From: Candidatus Thorarchaeota archaeon
GTDB lineage: Archaea > Asgardarchaeota > Thorarchaeia > Thorarchaeales > Thorarchaeaceae
Length of the DNA stretch: 11,134 nt
Direction of reading: 5' to 3'
NCBI GenBank assembly: GCA_016840855.1
Contig: JAEORO010000229.1
Coordinates: forward strand, 1 to 11,134
How positions within the stretch are numbered: position 1 is the first letter of the stretch; the number at the start of each line of letters is the position of its first letter. Positions 4,586 to 10,684 of this stretch are shown piece after piece. The notes under the pieces are model-generated. The model had not been told where the DNA came from. It worked only from the letters and a program-made list of their open reading frames with translations, and made no database searches. Both the position numbers and the translations under genes were made by a program.

Positions 4586-4638
4586 TGACTAGTTGTCATC
4601 ACCTTCAAGTGATAAGCATATCTAGAAGGACAGATATC

Positions 4639-5403
4639 ATGCTAAAGTGGCAGGTAGCGATTGCCACAGAGAACCCTAAAGTTCTCTATCTAGTCATTGA
4701 GCTCTTGAAAAAACTCAATCTCCAGTTTGAGGTCTGTACACCTGGCAATCCTCGATGTCAAGAGGCTAAAGTAGTTGTTTCAACATTAGAGGACTCCAGC
4801 AATCATAATTCTCTGGTCATTGTCAATGAAACAATGGACCCTGATTTTACAGCGATTGAGATCTTGGCAAAGCTAAATGATATTCAAGATCCTGCGGTTG
4901 CCGCAATAGGAGTTGATCCCGGAATGCGGTTCGGAATTGCTCTAGTCATTGATGGCATTGTTCTATTCAAAAGCTCACTAACAAGTCCCGGTTCCGCAGC
5001 TAGAATGACCTCTCGTTTGGAATCGTATGTCTATCATCTTTTTCCAAAATGCAAGATAATTGTACGAGCAGGAACAGGCTCAAAATTGTACACGGCCTTG
5101 TATCTCCGAACTATGCACGAAGAGTTTCCAAATCTGAATGTTGAGCTTGTTAATGAGCATCGAACAACATTATCAAGCGGCATAACCTCTGACCAATCCT
5201 CAGCAATTCTTATAGCTGGAAGGTCTGGACGATTGCATGAAGCGAGTGATAGAATTCTTGAACCAAAAGTAGGGTATGTAAGGTCTCTGAAACTATTTGT
5301 ACAACGATTCACTCGAGGTAAACGTGAAATCACAACTGATGAAGCTCACGCAATTCTACTTGGAGAACTGTCTTTAGATCGTATTTTGTCAGGCGATTAC
5401 TAA
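4639..5403 (+). CDS. Uncharacterised protein with a central RNase H-fold (YqgF/RuvC-like) putative nuclease domain
   Basis: AIGVDPGMRFGIALV (Asp at 4915), ELVNEHRTT (Glu at 5155) and SDQSSAILIA (Asp at 5191) match the YqgF-type pattern DxG..xGxA / VDERxTT / DxxAAxxI. ATG 4639, preceded by GAAGGA at 4625-4630, is preferred over the track's GTG 4609. Confidence 0.72.
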   Translation: MLKWQVAIATENPKVLYLVIELLKKLNLQFEVCTPGNPRCQEAKVVVSTLEDSSNHNSLVIVNETMDPDFTAIEILAKLNDIQDPAVAAIGVDPGMRFGIALVIDGIVLFKSSLTSPGSAARMTSRLESYVYHLFPKCKIIVRAGTGSKLYTALYLRTMHEEFPNLNVELVNEHRTTLSSGITSDQSSAILIAGRSGRLHEASDRILEPKVGYVRSLKLFVQRFTRGKREITTDEAHAILLGELSLDRILSGDY

Positions 5404-7331
5404 ACAATAAAGAAACTCTCAACTTCATGTGAGGTTATTTCCGGATCATTTGGGATGATTTGAGTGACATCAGCTAACCAAGACGGGATGAATCTACTAA
5501 GATAGGACGTTCCAAACCGTTGGTCGAGCAATACAATCACACCTCTATCATCCAGTCTTCTTACAGGTCTGCCTGCAGCTTGGATTGCACGAGTCATTGC
5601 AGGGAGCACATAGGCATAATCTCTCCCTTTCTGATTGAATCTCGAATCGTAATAGTTGATGAGTGCCTCCATTCTTGGAGTGGGTTTAGCATAAGGGACT
5701 CCTACGACCACTACGCTTTCCATCGTTGTCCCTGGGAAGTCTCCCCCCTCAGAGTTTCGACCACCTTGTACCCCAAGAAGCACTGCTCCACCACGATCTC
5801 CTTCCTCTCTAAAAGCTTGAATCAATCTATCATTCTCAGCTCCTTTCATCCCTGGTTTTTCAATGAAGATTTTGCGTCGAATACGTTTCTCGAAACCGGC
5901 ATCAATTAGAGACTTGCCTACTGAGTAGCTGGAAGTAAAGATTCCAGTGTTACTTGGAGTGGCATTTACGACAGCTACACATTGATCTACCATCTGCTCA
6001 AAAGTTGAATCACTTCTATTTTGGAATGATGTGTCTAAATCGCTGATGATTAGACCAAGCCTATTCTTTCTCGCGAAAGGGCTTTGAAAAGTTGCCTTGA
6101 CGGCATCTGGTCCGAATCCTAACATTTCAGCATATGCATCCAATGGTGAGATGGTACCAGATATCGCTACTGAGCTATGCACCATGCTCAATACTTTTTC
6201 AGTAACTGATGTTGGATCCAATGCAACAAGGTCTATCGAAACTCTTCTGCTTTCTCCATAACCCCTACTGGAAGCTAATAGAAATGTGTAGTCCTTCCTT
6301 TCCGCGCATCTCAACCATCTAATCAGAAACTCGCTTACTCTGTGGATTGAAGAACGTGGAAATTTGCCTGCTTTTAATAAGCCTCGTCTGATTTTGGATC
6401 CTAAATCCTTCATGTGGGCAAGGATCTGAGGTTGATGCTCCAATTGAGCTATCTTAATTGCAGTTTCGACTATTTGTTTAGGATCTACTAACCTCTCATC
6501 AACCTGTTTCATATCTGAAGAGAGTTCCAAGACTGCCTTAGCCAGAGAACGAGTGAAGTCCTTCGAGGGTTCGTCATTATAGGTTATTGCTTCTCGGAGT
6601 GCTTGCCTTATTGTTCCTATGGTCAATGAGTCACTTGCCGAGTCAAGTGCTGTAGAAGGAACATTATGGGCTTCATCTTGCACTAGTACAATTTTTGATG
6701 GTGGTGTTTCAAGATCAGGGATGAACACTTCAAGTATCCAAGGGTCTAAGACATAGAGATATGAAAGAGCGACAACATCTACTACCTTTGCAAGACGTTT
6801 TGCGAGTTCATAAGGACATAATGATTTACTACTCGCAATTTTAGCGATCTCTGGGGCTGAAAGTACCTTCTTCGGCATATCTTCCAAAAGGTCTTCAGGA
6901 TTTCCTGCCCGACGAAGATTCTCATAATAAACACATCTTCCCGTTGCTTTTAATTGACCACAGACTTCAGAGATTGGGGCAACGAAATCTGCATTTTCTA
7001 GTACAAAGGAATTCAAACACATGTGACGTCGTCCACGGAAAGAAACGCCGGAAACTTCCCTTTTACCTGATATTTCTTCAAGCTCTTCCATAACTCGATC
7101 AAGCTGTCTATGTGTTCGAGCGCAATACAGTATCTTTCCATCTTTCTCATTGACCCATGGCAACACACTGCTTAAGGTAACACAAGTCTTTCCAAAGCCA
7201 TTTGGCGCTTCTGAACAAATATGAATACTGGCTTTGACAGACGCCTCAATTTCCTTCATCATTTGCTCTTGGCCTTCACGTGCTTCAGGATACGGAAAAA
7301 AGTCCATATAGCTCATAGAATCTTTGGACAT
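5400..7331 (-). CDS. xpd: XPD/Rad3/DinG-family Fe-S cluster 5'-3' DNA helicase (SF2)
   Basis: 643 aa. Q motif FPYPEAREGQ, Walker A APNGFGKT, RTHRQL, four Fe-S cysteines (HMCLN, EVCGQ, GRCVYY, LCPYE), motif II DEAHN, motif III SGTISP, SEGGDFPG, VGVPY, motif VI QAAGRPVR and LLDQRF. Confidence 0.95.
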   Translation of the reverse strand: MSKDSMSYMDFFPYPEAREGQEQMMKEIEASVKASIHICSEAPNGFGKTCVTLSSVLPWVNEKDGKILYCARTHRQLDRVMEELEEISGKREVSGVSFRGRRHMCLNSFVLENADFVAPISEVCGQLKATGRCVYYENLRRAGNPEDLLEDMPKKVLSAPEIAKIASSKSLCPYELAKRLAKVVDVVALSYLYVLDPWILEVFIPDLETPPSKIVLVQDEAHNVPSTALDSASDSLTIGTIRQALREAITYNDEPSKDFTRSLAKAVLELSSDMKQVDERLVDPKQIVETAIKIAQLEHQPQILAHMKDLGSKIRRGLLKAGKFPRSSIHRVSEFLIRWLRCAERKDYTFLLASSRGYGESRRVSIDLVALDPTSVTEKVLSMVHSSVAISGTISPLDAYAEMLGFGPDAVKATFQSPFARKNRLGLIISDLDTSFQNRSDSTFEQMVDQCVAVVNATPSNTGIFTSSYSVGKSLIDAGFEKRIRRKIFIEKPGMKGAENDRLIQAFREEGDRGGAVLLGVQGGRNSEGGDFPGTTMESVVVVGVPYAKPTPRMEALINYYDSRFNQKGRDYAYVLPAMTRAIQAAGRPVRRLDDRGVIVLLDQRFGTSYLSRFIPSWLADVTQIIPNDPEITSHEVESFFIV

Positions 7332-7398
7332 TAGGGCTCTACAAATGTGTGCCAGTTACAGCCCTGATAATCCTGTTGCTTCTTCCCATCGCTTGCGT

Positions 7399-7435
7399 TA
7401 GTGATTTATCTGACCTTTTCATTCAGATAGTGATT
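7399..7435. promoter_or_regulatory. Inverted repeat TATCTGA-N9-TCAGATA overlapped by an 8-bp direct repeat TAGTGATT; candidate operator or 5' hairpin
   Basis: TATCTGA at 7407-7413 and TCAGATA at 7423-7429; TAGTGATT at 7399-7406 and 7428-7435. Lies in the xpd / PAC4-like divergent intergenic region, ending 4 nt before ATG 7440. Function is inferred only. Confidence 0.35.
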
Positions 7436-7439
7436 AATT

Positions 7440-7784
7440 ATGGAGTTTGATGATATATCTGAGTTCTCATCAGAAACGTCGGCAGGAACCATCAAAGTAC
7501 GCATTATGCACATGACAAATGGGCTTCTAGTCCTAATCTCTGACTCAACCAAGTTTAGACTTGGTTTCTCTGCAATGGCTATCCCCCCGGGGCAAGGTCG
7601 CTCTGAACCCACATCAGTCGGATTCTTCACAAAGGAGATTGATAGTACGCTTGTAAGAACACTTGCTGAACGGGTGTCCTCATGGACTAACCAGACATGC
7701 ATGCTTGTTGTAGGAATGAGTTCACTTTCTAGAGAACGAATGTTGGAGCTCATGTCTCTTTTGAGGGATCATTTTCTGACTTAA
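7440..7784 (+). CDS. Proteasome assembly chaperone PAC4 (PSMG4/Pba4)-like protein
   Basis: 114 aa. IKVRIMHMTNGLLVLIS..FRLGFSAMAIP...PTSVGFF...STLVRTLAERVSSWTNQTCMLVVGM aligns by eye, colinearly, with human PSMG4 as I recall it (VHFHVMRLTDSLFLWVG..HLRNLAVAM...PVSTSLLG...TTSTGLAQRLARKTNKQVFVSYNL). The length is similar. Confidence 0.7.
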   Translation: MEFDDISEFSSETSAGTIKVRIMHMTNGLLVLISDSTKFRLGFSAMAIPPGQGRSEPTSVGFFTKEIDSTLVRTLAERVSSWTNQTCMLVVGMSSLSRERMLELMSLLRDHFLT

Positions 7785-7983
7785 TCTGTTCAGCCACTTC
7801 ACGTACCCACTGACCAGTTTCATCTATCTCACAGAGAACTTCGATATACTCTTCCCAGCTTAATCCATTTGCTTTTCTCCAGCTCTCAAATGATGAATGG
7901 ATATTGTCCAGTGCCTCTTGATGATAACGACAGAGGCTGCCTTCTCTTAAAGCCTCACGACCACAAATCGTACAGAGTTTCAC
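7750..7983 (-). CDS. Small hypothetical protein with an N-terminal CxxC-x10-CxxH zinc finger and a Trp-rich acidic helical C-terminus
   Basis: 77 aa with CTIC...CRYH, then W..A.G.SWEEYI...ETGQWVREVA. The GTG start overlaps the topoisomerase TGA stop (GTGA, 7980-7983), a typical translational-coupling arrangement. Confidence 0.8.
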   Translation of the reverse strand: MKLCTICGREALREGSLCRYHQEALDNIHSSFESWRKANGLSWEEYIEVLCEIDETGQWVREVAEQIKSENDPSKET

Positions 7984-10109
7984 TCTTCAGTTTCCTCCTG
8001 CCGTTTTTCGTTATTTTTTATTCGCCGCTCTTCGAGTGCTTTGAGCTCGTCTTTTCGCCCTGGGCAGTCTGCCCAATTGATACAGGTTTCCCACCTTCTA
8101 CGTGCTGATACCACTTGGAACATCTGATACCCACAATAAGGGCATTTCTCATCTAGAGGCAACAAATCTCCTTTTTGTGGCAGAGGAAATGTCTGATCGC
8201 ATTTTCCTTCACTATAGTTGGAACATCCTACGAACCGTTTTCCTGTCTTGGAGGATCTTATAACTCGAAGTGTCCCCTCTCCACACTTCGGACAAGCACC
8301 GAGTTCTTCCTTCGACTTCCAGTATCTCTGAAGACCATTTACAAGATCGGTCCCTATTTCTCCTTCCTGTGATTTGAAATTCTCAAGCAACTCTAAAAGC
8401 TCTACTTTTGCTTTCGATAATACATCATCTCTGTTTTTTGTTTCCTGTTGGATGTTATCCATCTCTCTCTCTAGTTGGCGTGTTAGCTCTGGAGATAAAA
8501 TGTCTGGCATATATTTCTCAAGAGTTTCATAGAGGGCATACCCCAAAGTGGAAAGCTCAAAGTTATCATTGATTGTATATCCTCGTGATTTAATAGAGTC
8601 GACAATTCCGGCCCTAGTCGCTTTCGTACCTAAATTCTCCCGTTCTAAAAGCTTAAGCAGACTCGCTGGATTGAACCGTGGAGGAGCTTGAGTGTATTTA
8701 TTCTCACATCTAACGGAGCTTAATAGAAGCGACTCCCCCTCTGATATCTTAGGAAGCTCTCTCTCGTTCGTTCTAGCATATACACCATAGAACTCCATCC
8801 ATCCTGGTTTTAATACCCTAAGTCCTCTCAAATACAGCAGATGCTCATCATGTCTAATGTCAGCGCGAAGATGTTCTTTTACTGCAGCTTCACCAAAGAG
8901 TGCGAGAAACCTTCTCACTATTAGGTCGTAAATTTTCTTCTCACTAGGTGTTAATCTTCTTGTCGCCTTTGAACCTGTGGGGTGTATCGCGGGATGAGCC
9001 GGGTCACTTTTTTGCCCTTGTGCTGGAGTGAGATAATCTGTTCGCAACACTCGACTCACCAATGAAGAATAGTCTTTCATCTTACCAAGGCCATTGAGAA
9101 TCTCCAGTAGATTCAGACTCGGTGGTAATTTCTCACTATTTGTCCTAGGATAAGAGATGAGTGCATCAAGATAGAGAGTTTGTGCAATTGCCAGTGTTCT
9201 GCTCGGTTTGAATCCAAAGTGTCGATAAGCCTCGGATTGGAGGGTGCTCAGATTAAATGGCGGATGTGGGTGCTGTGTGGTTGTTCTGCTGTTTATTGAA
9301 TCTACAAATGCAGTAGTTCCATCCAATGCTTTTACAACTCTCTCAGCCTCACTTTTTGTGTCTATGCGCTTCTTTGAATACTCTAGTTCTATCTCTGAAC
9401 CTCTGTGTACACTCTTTGCATGGATTACCCAGTATGGAAAAGGCACGAAGACATTGATCTTTTGTTCCCTCTCAGCTACATATGAAAGGGTTGGTCCTTG
9501 TACTCTTCCAGTAGAAACTATCTTGAACCAACCAGAAGTGTTCTTTATTGCGAGAGTCAACGCTCTGGTGAGGTTGATGCCATACAACCAATCAATCTCA
9601 TGTCTCACGAAACCAGCTTCAATCATTGGGAAATCCAGCGTGTTTGACATATTCTCAAAGGCATGTTGTATCTCTGACTCTGTCAAAGTACTGAAAATCA
9701 TGCGGTGAGCTTTCTCAGTATTTGCCTTGCAAGCATGTACTAATGTAAGATATCCGATCAGACTTCCTTCAATATCATAATCAGTTGCTACAACAAAGGT
9801 CTCGATATCCTTTGCAAGAGTTTTGATTAGATTGATGATTGGTTTTGTTTGGGTGGCTCTCTTTTCCACTTCATACTTTGGGACCCATAAAGTTTCCAAT
9901 CGGGGATAATCCCACCCCTTCACACTTTGCTTTAGTTCGAATAGGTGTCCAAGTGCATATACAACGATTAGACTATCCGTTTCTCTTTTACACTCATAAT
10001 AAGACACGCTTCGTTTCTTCACTTCAATCGGGGCTAGATTTTCGTCCAGAGCTATAGCTATGCGTTTAGCCGCAGTCGGCTTTTCAGTGATAATCATAAC
10101 CTTGGACAT
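7980..10109 (-). CDS. topA: Type IA DNA topoisomerase (archaeal TopA/Topo III) with C-terminal zinc ribbons
   Basis: 709 aa. TOPRIM IITEKP and ATDYDIEG, GHL, STGRVQGPTL, catalytic ISYPRT, AHPAIHPT, LGTKATRA. C-terminal CPKC...GCSNY...C and CPYC...CINWADC zinc ribbons. GAGGT SD at 10118-10122 (minus strand). Confidence 0.97.
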   Translation of the reverse strand: MSKVMIITEKPTAAKRIAIALDENLAPIEVKKRSVSYYECKRETDSLIVVYALGHLFELKQSVKGWDYPRLETLWVPKYEVEKRATQTKPIINLIKTLAKDIETFVVATDYDIEGSLIGYLTLVHACKANTEKAHRMIFSTLTESEIQHAFENMSNTLDFPMIEAGFVRHEIDWLYGINLTRALTLAIKNTSGWFKIVSTGRVQGPTLSYVAEREQKINVFVPFPYWVIHAKSVHRGSEIELEYSKKRIDTKSEAERVVKALDGTTAFVDSINSRTTTQHPHPPFNLSTLQSEAYRHFGFKPSRTLAIAQTLYLDALISYPRTNSEKLPPSLNLLEILNGLGKMKDYSSLVSRVLRTDYLTPAQGQKSDPAHPAIHPTGSKATRRLTPSEKKIYDLIVRRFLALFGEAAVKEHLRADIRHDEHLLYLRGLRVLKPGWMEFYGVYARTNERELPKISEGESLLLSSVRCENKYTQAPPRFNPASLLKLLERENLGTKATRAGIVDSIKSRGYTINDNFELSTLGYALYETLEKYMPDILSPELTRQLEREMDNIQQETKNRDDVLSKAKVELLELLENFKSQEGEIGTDLVNGLQRYWKSKEELGACPKCGEGTLRVIRSSKTGKRFVGCSNYSEGKCDQTFPLPQKGDLLPLDEKCPYCGYQMFQVVSARRRWETCINWADCPGRKDELKALEERRIKNNEKRQEETEE

Positions 10110-10217
10110 CTTTCAATACCTCTATTCTCAGTCGTTATCACAATCAATAACTCATTCAAATAGCCATTGTGGCATACATACCAATCAATGTTAGTACAAC
10201 TTTGCATATCGCGCAAG

Positions 10218-10254
10218 TCTTAAAAGCAGACGCAAAATGGGGACCGCTCGAGGT
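10218..10254 (+). promoter_or_regulatory. Putative TATA-like element and Shine-Dalgarno of the OSTC-like gene
   Basis: TCTTAAAA at 10218-10225 and GAGGT at 10250-10254, the latter 7 nt before the in-frame TTG at 10262. Confidence 0.4.
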
Positions 10255-10261
10255 AAGATAT

Positions 10262-10684
10262 TTGAAGCCTTGGTGGCCGAGATATATAGTAAAGCCAAGA
10301 GTGCGGCTCAGTAGACCCAGTTTCGGGATGCCTACTCGCCCTCCAGACACAGTCATATTTGGTATAATGTTTCTTGTTGTACTTTTCGTTCTCGGTGGTA
10401 ACATCTACACGCTAGTTCGAACACCACCTGCTATCGCTGGAACTCAAAGTGGTGCTCCAATCGTTATTGCTCCAGGGATTGATCAGCAACTGGGAATGGA
10501 AGGAATCGTTGCTTCGGTAATCATTCTTGTAGGTGTTGTCGGTCTCGGACTAGTATATTATGCCTCTAAGTATGTCTTCCAGCCAGGCTATGCAACAAGG
10601 CTCATGATACTTGGAATGATAATGGCAGGTGTATCTTTTCTGGTCTTTAGCTATCTATGGAACATCAAAGCGGGTCTTCTATAG
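10262..10684 (+). CDS. DC2/OSTC-like (OST3/OST6 family, transmembrane region only) oligosaccharyltransferase accessory subunit
   Basis: Three predicted TM segments. PRVRLSRPSF...P.DTVIFGIMFLVVLFVLGGNIYTLVRTPPAIAG...PIVIAPGIDQQLGMEGIVAS...GVVGL...SF....WNIK matches human OSTC as I recall it ([45 protein letters not shown]...NGQYIMEGLASS...GGLGF...SF....MRMK). The start was moved from GTG 10169 to TTG 10262 (140 aa) because of the GAGGT SD. Confidence 0.8.
   Translation: MKPWWPRYIVKPRVRLSRPSFGMPTRPPDTVIFGIMFLVVLFVLGGNIYTLVRTPPAIAGTQSGAPIVIAPGIDQQLGMEGIVASVIILVGVVGLGLVYYASKYVFQPGYATRLMILGMIMAGVSFLVFSYLWNIKAGLL

Follow-up and report, generated by a model that had tools for sequence, protein, structure and literature searches.

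The eukaryotic 20S proteasome relies on dedicated chaperones for its assembly, and the archaeal relatives of these factors described so far, as given in the portions of the sources available to us, are the PAC1/PAC2-like proteins PbaA and PbaB (PF09754; PMC3605417). A stretch of 11,134 nucleotides from Candidatus Thorarchaeota archaeon (assembly GCA_016840855.1, contig JAEORO010000229.1; the whole stretch is referred to below as the window) raises the question of whether the PAC3/PAC4 type of chaperone also has archaeal relatives and, if so, which client they serve. A first-pass annotation, made from the sequence alone, had taken the open reading frame (ORF) at positions 7440-7784 for an archaeal homologue of PAC4 (PSMG4). 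Our analysis indicates that the encoded protein, hereafter PAC4L, very probably belongs to an Asgard-wide PAC4-like clade which, judging from profile comparisons, is closer to PAC4 than to LpdD, the chaperone of UbiD enzymes, and stands apart from LpdD proper. Among prokaryotic proteins it is the nearest relative of eukaryotic PAC4 met in this analysis.

The gene, its predicted fold and its relatives

According to the six-frame ORF list and the DNA, the ORF consists of 114 codons and a stop, starts with ATG and lies on the plus strand. It contains the motifs to which the first-pass annotation had pointed, namely R40-L41-G42, A45-M46-A47-I48-P49, P57-T58-S59, L75-A76-E77-R78-V79-S80 and T83-N84. 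Public data hold 94 close homologues, 60-89% identical and nearly all 114-115 residues long. All are annotated as hypothetical proteins and come from metagenome-assembled genomes (MAGs) of Thorarchaeota, Sifarchaeia or Promethearchaeota, and many carry a precomputed PF16093 (PAC4) tag. Of the 85 other genomes in the taxonomic family of the window, 80 contain a single-copy match to a narrow Thor profile of 25 sequences (A1). Since the plus frame is conserved at the protein level (the 94 homologues and Asgard matches down to ~20% identity) and the fold is predicted with confidence, the ORF is a real, conserved gene. Its coding sequence (7440-7784, plus strand, 114 aa, stop included) is supported by the ORF list, DNA, homologues, fold model and profiles alike.

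The AlphaFold2 model, computed from the 25-sequence alignment (pLDDT 85.1, pTM 0.80), consists of strands 5-13, 16-25, 28-34, 44-48 and 59-62, helix 69-83, strand 86-92 and helix 98-113. These elements make up the five-strand sheet, helix, strand and C-terminal helix of the PAC3/PAC4 fold, in the order that had been read from the sequence beforehand. In a structure search the model matched the PAC3/PAC4/LpdD fold only. Foldseek gave the best TM-score with human PAC4 (8qyj_M, 'Proteasome assembly chaperone 4', chain M of a human 20S assembly intermediate; E = 5.7e-6, TM 0.74), as the first-pass annotation had anticipated; LpdD (8pzo; E = 5.3e-6, TM 0.63) and PAC3 (2z5e; TM 0.62) were also retrieved. 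With structure-search rows less than 1 Z unit apart counted as tied, the predicted structure by itself would mildly favour PAC4 over LpdD.

For profile comparisons we used, besides A1, an Asgard-wide alignment of 31 sequences with identity down to ~20% (A2), nine sequences from lineages with the gene beside UbiX/UbiD (A3), a Loki-type sub-profile (A4), 17 genus-level sequences of the Thor order (A5) and, as a control, 7 Asgard LpdD-like sequences including this genome's own paralogue (A6); A3 and A5 are largely separate from each other. Against 177,635 PDB sequences, A2 retrieved human PAC4 as its sole match (E = 1.1e-6, 31.6 bits). Human PAC4 was also the only match of A5 (E = 7.4e-6, nearly end to end, residues 6-112 against 14-116) and of A3 (E = 6.3e-5), and none of the three profiles matched LpdD, PAC3 or Pba at E ≤ 10. 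With the control it was the other way round: L. plantarum LpdD was matched (E = 5e-11), PAC4 was not. It is because the family profiles match only PAC4 while the control matches only LpdD that we place the protein in a PAC4-like clade, and the closer likeness to an LpdD-like family that the first-pass annotation had considered as the alternative did not emerge. The single PAC4L sequence gave nothing at E ≤ 10 against the PDB sequences, and A1 matched neither PAC nor LpdD there. At E ≤ 0.01, 23 of the 31 members of A2 match Pfam PAC4 and 14 match Pfam PAC_bac (PF21758; LpdD_chaperone in Pfam 38.1).

The metal site of LpdD comprises the strictly conserved His35, His61 and Asp63, according to the part of the LpdD paper available to us (PMC10865409). 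Its counterparts H34, H64 and D66 are invariant in the seven sequences of A6. When A2 is aligned with A6 by hhalign, R40 (codon at 7557-7559) aligns with H34, the first metal-ligand histidine, and, within K65-D68 (7632-7643), K65 aligns with the second one, H64, and D68 with the metal aspartate, D66; two of the three residues of the site are thus replaced in PAC4L. R40 itself lies in the conserved loop and strand D35-G42 (DSTKFRLG; 7542-7565), in which D35 and G42 vary hardly or not at all across the family. P49 (7584-7586), the sole invariant residue of A2, is common to LpdD-like proteins (P43 of A6). A76-E77-R78 ('AER'; 7665-7673) forms the centre of helix 69-83, with E77 invariant in the Thor-order alignment, and may be compared with 'AEK' of LpdD-like proteins. 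All these codons are on the plus strand.

PAC4L is widespread among Asgard archaea. A2 has matches in 326 of 400 Asgard genomes (83 of the 90 of high quality) and in 73 of 85 genera, a count that includes cross-matches to LpdD-like genes (the loci in families f15 and f16 were read as LpdD-like; f1 is the window's family), so that the clade proper is somewhat smaller; weak A2 matches in f9 and f10 were left unclassified. Named carriers are Thor-, Sif-, Loki-, Hel-, Hod- and Atabey-archaeal MAGs. Canonical LpdD-like genes (PF21758, E ≤ 1e-12) are present in 130 of the 400 genomes, mainly in f1 (80/85), f11 (17/22), f12 (2/2), f15 (4/5), f16 (6/6) and f22 (14/135), with few elsewhere. Most families have either PAC4L or the LpdD-like gene, and Thor-like genomes carry both. 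Second A2 matches in five related genomes proved to be LpdD-like genes only, with no PAC3-like paralogue among them. Fused or longer forms (316-2000 aa) were not found, which is weak evidence. Among 1.84 billion representative proteins A1 had 21 matches at E ≤ 1e-3, all from the same family range, the profile being too narrow for eukaryotes or other phyla. Look-alikes labelled Bathyarchaeota and Nitrososphaerota hint, as leads only, that the clade or its kin may reach beyond Asgard archaea.

Candidate clients

With its small size and its PAC3/PAC4/LpdD chaperone fold, PAC4L is in our best guess a dimeric chaperone without catalytic activity. LpdD is a homodimer, PAC3 is able to homodimerise, and PAC3 and PAC4 form a heterodimer; by analogy, PAC4L probably acts as a dimer too, and because it is single-copy and no PAC3-like partner was found, a homodimer would be expected here. 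Such a dimer would keep hold of a client or cofactor while a large oligomeric enzyme matures, with the conserved loop face D35-G42/P49/P57-S59/E77 as the putative binding face. PAC4 works as a heterodimer with PAC3, binds the beta-facing side of alpha subunits and promotes assembly of the alpha ring. By analogy with this eukaryotic relative, the leading candidate client of PAC4L is the alpha ring of the 20S proteasome, an assignment that we make tentatively. From homology alone it is plausible, as the first-pass annotation had proposed, that a PAC3/4-type chaperone existed before alpha-subunit diversification.

The likeness of PAC4L to human PAC4 (PDB 8qyj chain M, 8tm3, 5wtq; PF16093) consists in the fold and the specific profile matches. 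The differences are an identity of only ~12-16%, the missing PAC3 partner and the missing proteasome gene context; alpha binding, known for PAC4, is for PAC4L a prediction. Yeast Pba3-Pba4 and human PAC3 (PDB 2z5b, 2z5c, 2z5e, 6jpt) are not matched by PAC4L profiles at E ≤ 10. The genome does encode the putative client, with two alpha and two beta proteasome genes, and also three PAC2-family (PbaA/PbaB-like) genes (contigs C110, C35, C5, C204, C250 and C187). The latter, ~250-270 aa long, are unrelated to PAC4L in fold and family and are not its neighbours. Two alpha paralogues, ~40% identical to each other, are found in 28 of 31 genomes of the window's family. In agreement with the first-pass annotation, Pfam and NCBIfam assignment of the window's ORFs reveals neither a proteasome gene nor a PAC3 gene. 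A complex prediction with two copies of PAC4L (A5) and this genome's alpha1 (A7), run without controls, scored 0.18 and 0.24 against a mark of 0.32, values that speak neither for nor against binding.

A number of observations weigh against this reading, some against the affinity to PAC4 itself and others against the proteasome as client. With Pfam PAC4 (PF16093) the protein scores 22.3 bits (E = 1.3e-4, profile positions 1-73 of 77; 22.6 bits in the genome scan), below the gathering cut-off of 31, and its score with PAC_bac (25.1 bits, E = 1.5e-5) likewise falls short of the cut-off of 27. Homology to at least two member families and the fold place PAC4L within the LpdD/PAC3/PAC4 superfamily, but by their own thresholds it falls in neither Pfam family. 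The Loki-type profile A4 had no PDB match at all. Kinship with LpdD is strong: hhalign aligns A2 with the LpdD-like A6 at a probability of 97.7% (E = 1.4e-12, 106 columns), and P49 and E77, common to PAC4L and LpdD-like proteins, correspond in profile alignments to C and Q in human PAC4. The two types are also distributed in a partly complementary way, f11, f12, f15 and f16 having the LpdD-like gene only and most other families PAC4L only, which would fit equivalent rather than different functions.

As for the proteasome, PAC3 (PF10178) gave nothing at E ≤ 10 in the whole genome, which is 92% complete, and hence this genome offers no PAC3 paralogue for a PAC4-style heterodimer. The presence of PAC4L shows no pattern with the number of alpha paralogues: f8 and f13, with one alpha gene, have PAC4L, and f11, f15 and f16, with two, lack it or have the LpdD-like form only. 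In a neighbourhood sample of one locus per genus (44 genera, 42 of them with PAC4L, from 22 families), a proteasome beta-subunit gene occurs within two genes of PAC4L at 1 of 42 loci (f30, two genes before PAC4L), and in 2 of 42 genera there is a PAC2-family gene at a distance of 5-6 genes. Moreover, archaeal 20S particles assemble without added factors, according to the accessible part of a 2026 review. UbiX or UbiD, on the other hand, lies no more than two genes from PAC4L in 8 of 42 genera and 7 of 22 families, none of them Thor-like. In f5, f6, f28 and f29 the next genes downstream of PAC4L, on its own strand, are UbiX-UbiD-AcnX; the next gene downstream is UbiD in f3 and f8/g27 and UbiX in f30, and in f8/g28 UbiD is two genes away; in three of these eight genera the genes are separated by gaps of a few bases or overlap by stop and start codons. 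UbiX/UbiD is the only recurrent, mechanistically interpretable context of PAC4L, and it is the system of LpdD. Of the proposed archaeal PAC4 homologue, therefore, the homology, the fold and the specific profile matches stand, whereas both Pfam scores remain below cut-off and the tie to the proteasome finds no evidence in either gene context or co-occurrence with alpha paralogues.

The gene context and the hhalign kinship invite the alternative that PAC4L does the job of LpdD, that is, acts as a dimer which takes reduced prenylated flavin mononucleotide (prFMN) from UbiX and loads or activates a UbiD-family decarboxylase, in this case in the archaeal mevalonate pathway. LpdD (PDB 8po5, 8pzo; PF21758) is a dimer of the Pba3/4 fold that binds reduced prFMN (prFMNH2) and assists UbiD activation, and UbiX-UbiD-AcnX represents a decarboxylase/dehydratase module of the archaeal mevalonate pathway, as stated in the parts of the respective papers available to us (PMC10865409; PMC9128505). 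UbiD is frequent (324 of 400 Asgard genomes), PAC4L and the LpdD-like gene mostly alternate between families, and among Thor genomes with both genes in the matches listed, PAC4L and UbiD are ~19-24 kb apart on the same contig, a spacing that looks like the remnant of a shared locus. One might even speculate that the arginine and lysine, standing where the metal ligands used to be, touch the phosphate of the cofactor themselves and need no Mn2+ as intermediary.

Several lines of evidence nevertheless weigh against a service to prFMN/UbiD, which we consider unlikely, though by only a thin margin less likely than the proteasome reading. In f21 (14 genomes from 7 genera, three of them single-contig) and f13 (12 genomes), searches at E ≤ 1e-3 for UbiD and E ≤ 1e-10 for UbiX found UbiD in 0/14 and 0/12 genomes and UbiX in 0/14 and 0/12, and AcnX did not exceed the cut-off in any of the five genomes tested from these families. 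A2 still matches 13/14 and 10/12 of these genomes (23/26 together). Because PAC4L is kept where both UbiD and UbiX are missing, the clade is not confined to this service. Strict co-occurrence with UbiD fails in both directions: f13, f18 and f21 have PAC4L and no UbiD, and f26 (UbiD in 6/7) and f10 (9/12) have UbiD with no or weak PAC-fold matches. Furthermore, a canonical LpdD-like gene is already present in this genome (PF21758, 122 bits, GGDEHHIGG...PGHKD; contig C127), as it is in the 80 of 85 others of its family. In Loki-type genomes with both clades it is the LpdD-like gene that lies near UbiD, at a distance of 1-2.5 kb, while PAC4L sits beside an ADH-synthase gene; an ADH-synthase aldolase gene upstream of PAC4L was verified in 4 genera of the Loki-type families. 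PAC4L has R40 and K65 in place of His35 and His61 of LpdD, and its profiles never reach LpdD in the PDB. Finally, neither UbiX nor UbiD was found beside PAC4L in this window, which thus lacks the LpdD type of context; the UbiD of this genome is found on another contig, in a GHMP-kinase-UbiD-AcnX cluster that has no PAC-fold neighbour.

Some additional observations concern the LpdD-like genes and the UbiD system. The LpdD-like gene on C127 (L006:1486-1854, minus strand) is not near UbiD. Its neighbours are, on one side, the gene for a glycine-cleavage P-protein subunit and, on the other, a 102-aa ThiS/Urm1-like ubiquitin-fold gene, beyond which comes a MiaB-like radical-SAM gene. A near-identical C-terminal LpdD-like fragment is found at a contig edge (C209:5-121; the estimated contamination is 6%). 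In the f16 genome G117, a 454-aa ORF (L084:4210-5571, minus strand) and a 186-aa ORF (L084:3451-4008, minus strand) beside the LpdD-like gene have the sizes of UbiD and UbiX, and neither has a Pfam match at E ≤ 1e-3. The 26 genomes of f21 and f13, devoid of UbiD and UbiX and, in the five tested, of AcnX over cut-off, seem to do without the archaeal-type lower mevalonate pathway and to make isopentenyl phosphate or diphosphate in another way. For the archaeal mevalonate module PMC9128505 cites Hayakawa et al. (2018).

The remaining candidates are other genes that recur beside PAC4L, so that a chaperone or adaptor of the same fold could serve a DNA-repair or topology factor (XPD, topoisomerase IA) or an HD phosphohydrolase. 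Within the window's family XPD adjoins PAC4L in every one of the 16 genera sampled; it does so in f2 and both f4 genera as well, and in f19 it is no more than two genes away. Topoisomerase IA or a 77-aa zinc-ribbon gene lies no farther than two genes from PAC4L in f2, in f8/g27 and in 12 of those 16 genera. The arrangement XPD-PAC4L-(77-aa zinc ribbon)-topoisomerase IA characterises the 16 genera of the window's family and f2, the order in f4 is XPD-PAC4L-HD, and a protein with HD and HD_assoc_2 domains adjoins PAC4L in f4 (2 genera), f14 (2) and f32. Neither the UbiD nor the alpha-paralogue phyletic test fits cleanly, which also leaves room for such a client. However, the XPD, topoisomerase IA and HD neighbours, together with UbiX-UbiD-AcnX, look like an old block of unrelated housekeeping genes, and XPD is divergent from, and the zinc-ribbon gene convergent to, PAC4L. 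We know of no member of the PAC3/PAC4/LpdD fold that acts on DNA-repair, topology or HD clients. We rate a client other than the proteasome or UbiD/prFMN as about as likely as the proteasome. The proximity of XPD and topoisomerase, however, we took for conserved synteny, and we dropped the idea that either is functionally linked to PAC4L. The HD and HD_assoc_2 protein, ~420-430 aa long and distantly dGTPase-like, either stands beside PAC4L or ends the UbiX-UbiD-AcnX cluster in eight families. Examples are encoded at L032:4434-5717 and L039:4102-5361, both on the plus strand.

Origin of the clade

The gene neighbourhoods can be accounted for if topoisomerase IA, XPD, PAC4L, UbiX, UbiD, AcnX and HD once formed a single old syntenic block that has been eroded differently in each lineage. 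The adjacency of PAC4L to UbiX-UbiD-AcnX, a gene order seen in 7 families, would then be ancestral, and the clade would have arisen from the LpdD-like family while beside this module. In this genome the gene has left the module and a true LpdD paralogue is present, and families without UbiD, UbiX and AcnX keep the clade; this suggests that the client of PAC4L is here independent of prFMN. A more far-reaching scenario is that eukaryotic PAC3-PAC4 descend from Asgard LpdD-type cofactor chaperones which were first encoded in a UbiX-UbiD operon, gave up the metal site and their dependence on prFMN within Asgard archaea, and acted as a homodimer on the 20S alpha ring before the eukaryotic alpha subunits diversified. 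We consider this chain of events as a whole unlikely, albeit worth stating.

If PAC4L does assist the proteasome, an Asgard-wide PAC4-like clade would mean that the archaea nearest to eukaryotes have, among their eukaryote-like genes, one for assembling the proteasome. Its old gene context also suggests a testable origin of PAC3/PAC4, by exaptation of a chaperone that once handled the cofactor of UbiX/UbiD. The Asgard clade provides a bridge between LpdD and PAC3/PAC4 at the level of sequence. In the text of the LpdD paper available to us, only the structural likeness of LpdD to Pba3/4 is noted (PMC10865409). Our literature search found no description of an Asgard or archaeal PAC3/PAC4-type homologue, although supplementary tables of eukaryotic signature proteins in large Asgard surveys, which lay outside the search, may list the family. 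No such archaeal factor is named in the accessible portion of the 2026 review on how proteasomes assemble, and the word 'proteasome' is absent from the main text of a large Asgard survey preprint. In databases, some members of the family already bear the PF16093 tag. PAC4L proteins are small and soluble, and hence binding of alpha subunits or of prFMNH2 can be tested directly.

Other genes of the window

PAC4L is transcribed divergently from the XPD helicase gene (5400-7331, minus strand; Pfam Helicase_C_2, DEAD_2 and HBB). The two are separated by a spacer of 108 bp (7332-7439), where the promoters of both genes are presumably located. The 3' end of PAC4L overlaps by 35 nt (7750-7784) that of the convergent 77-aa zinc-ribbon ORF (7750-7983, minus strand), which matches positions 605-673 of 677 of NCBIfam PRK05776 (E = 1.1e-11), the C-terminal tail of topoisomerase I. 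This ORF begins 4 nt inside the end of the gene for topoisomerase IA (709 aa; 7980-10109, minus strand) and trails it in f2, in f8/g27 and, within the window's family, in 11 of the genera sampled; the pair looks like a conserved split or a trailing module. An antisense 115-aa ORF (7406-7753), similar in length to PAC4L and overlapping it, is ruled out as a true gene by conservation of the plus frame, and the idea that PAC4L is itself a chance frame or the shadow of this ORF has virtually nothing to recommend it, given the 94 homologues of the plus-frame protein, its matches in 326 of 400 Asgard genomes and a confident model with specific fold matches.

The remainder of the window contains the gene for the DP2 subunit of PolD (3-2294) and genes for a CBS protein, a CDP-archaeol synthase, a RadB-like ATPase and an MptE-like fragment. 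Between the RadB-like gene and XPD lies a 264-aa ORF (4609-5403, plus strand) with a weak DUF460 match only (E = 0.075), and an ORF of 251-276 aa occupies the same slot in most sampled genera of the window's family. An OST3/OST6-like membrane protein of 171 aa (10169-10684, plus strand) matches the C-terminal part of PF04756 (E = 2.3e-10); we take the OST3/OST6 family to be among the eukaryote-like proteins of Asgard archaea.

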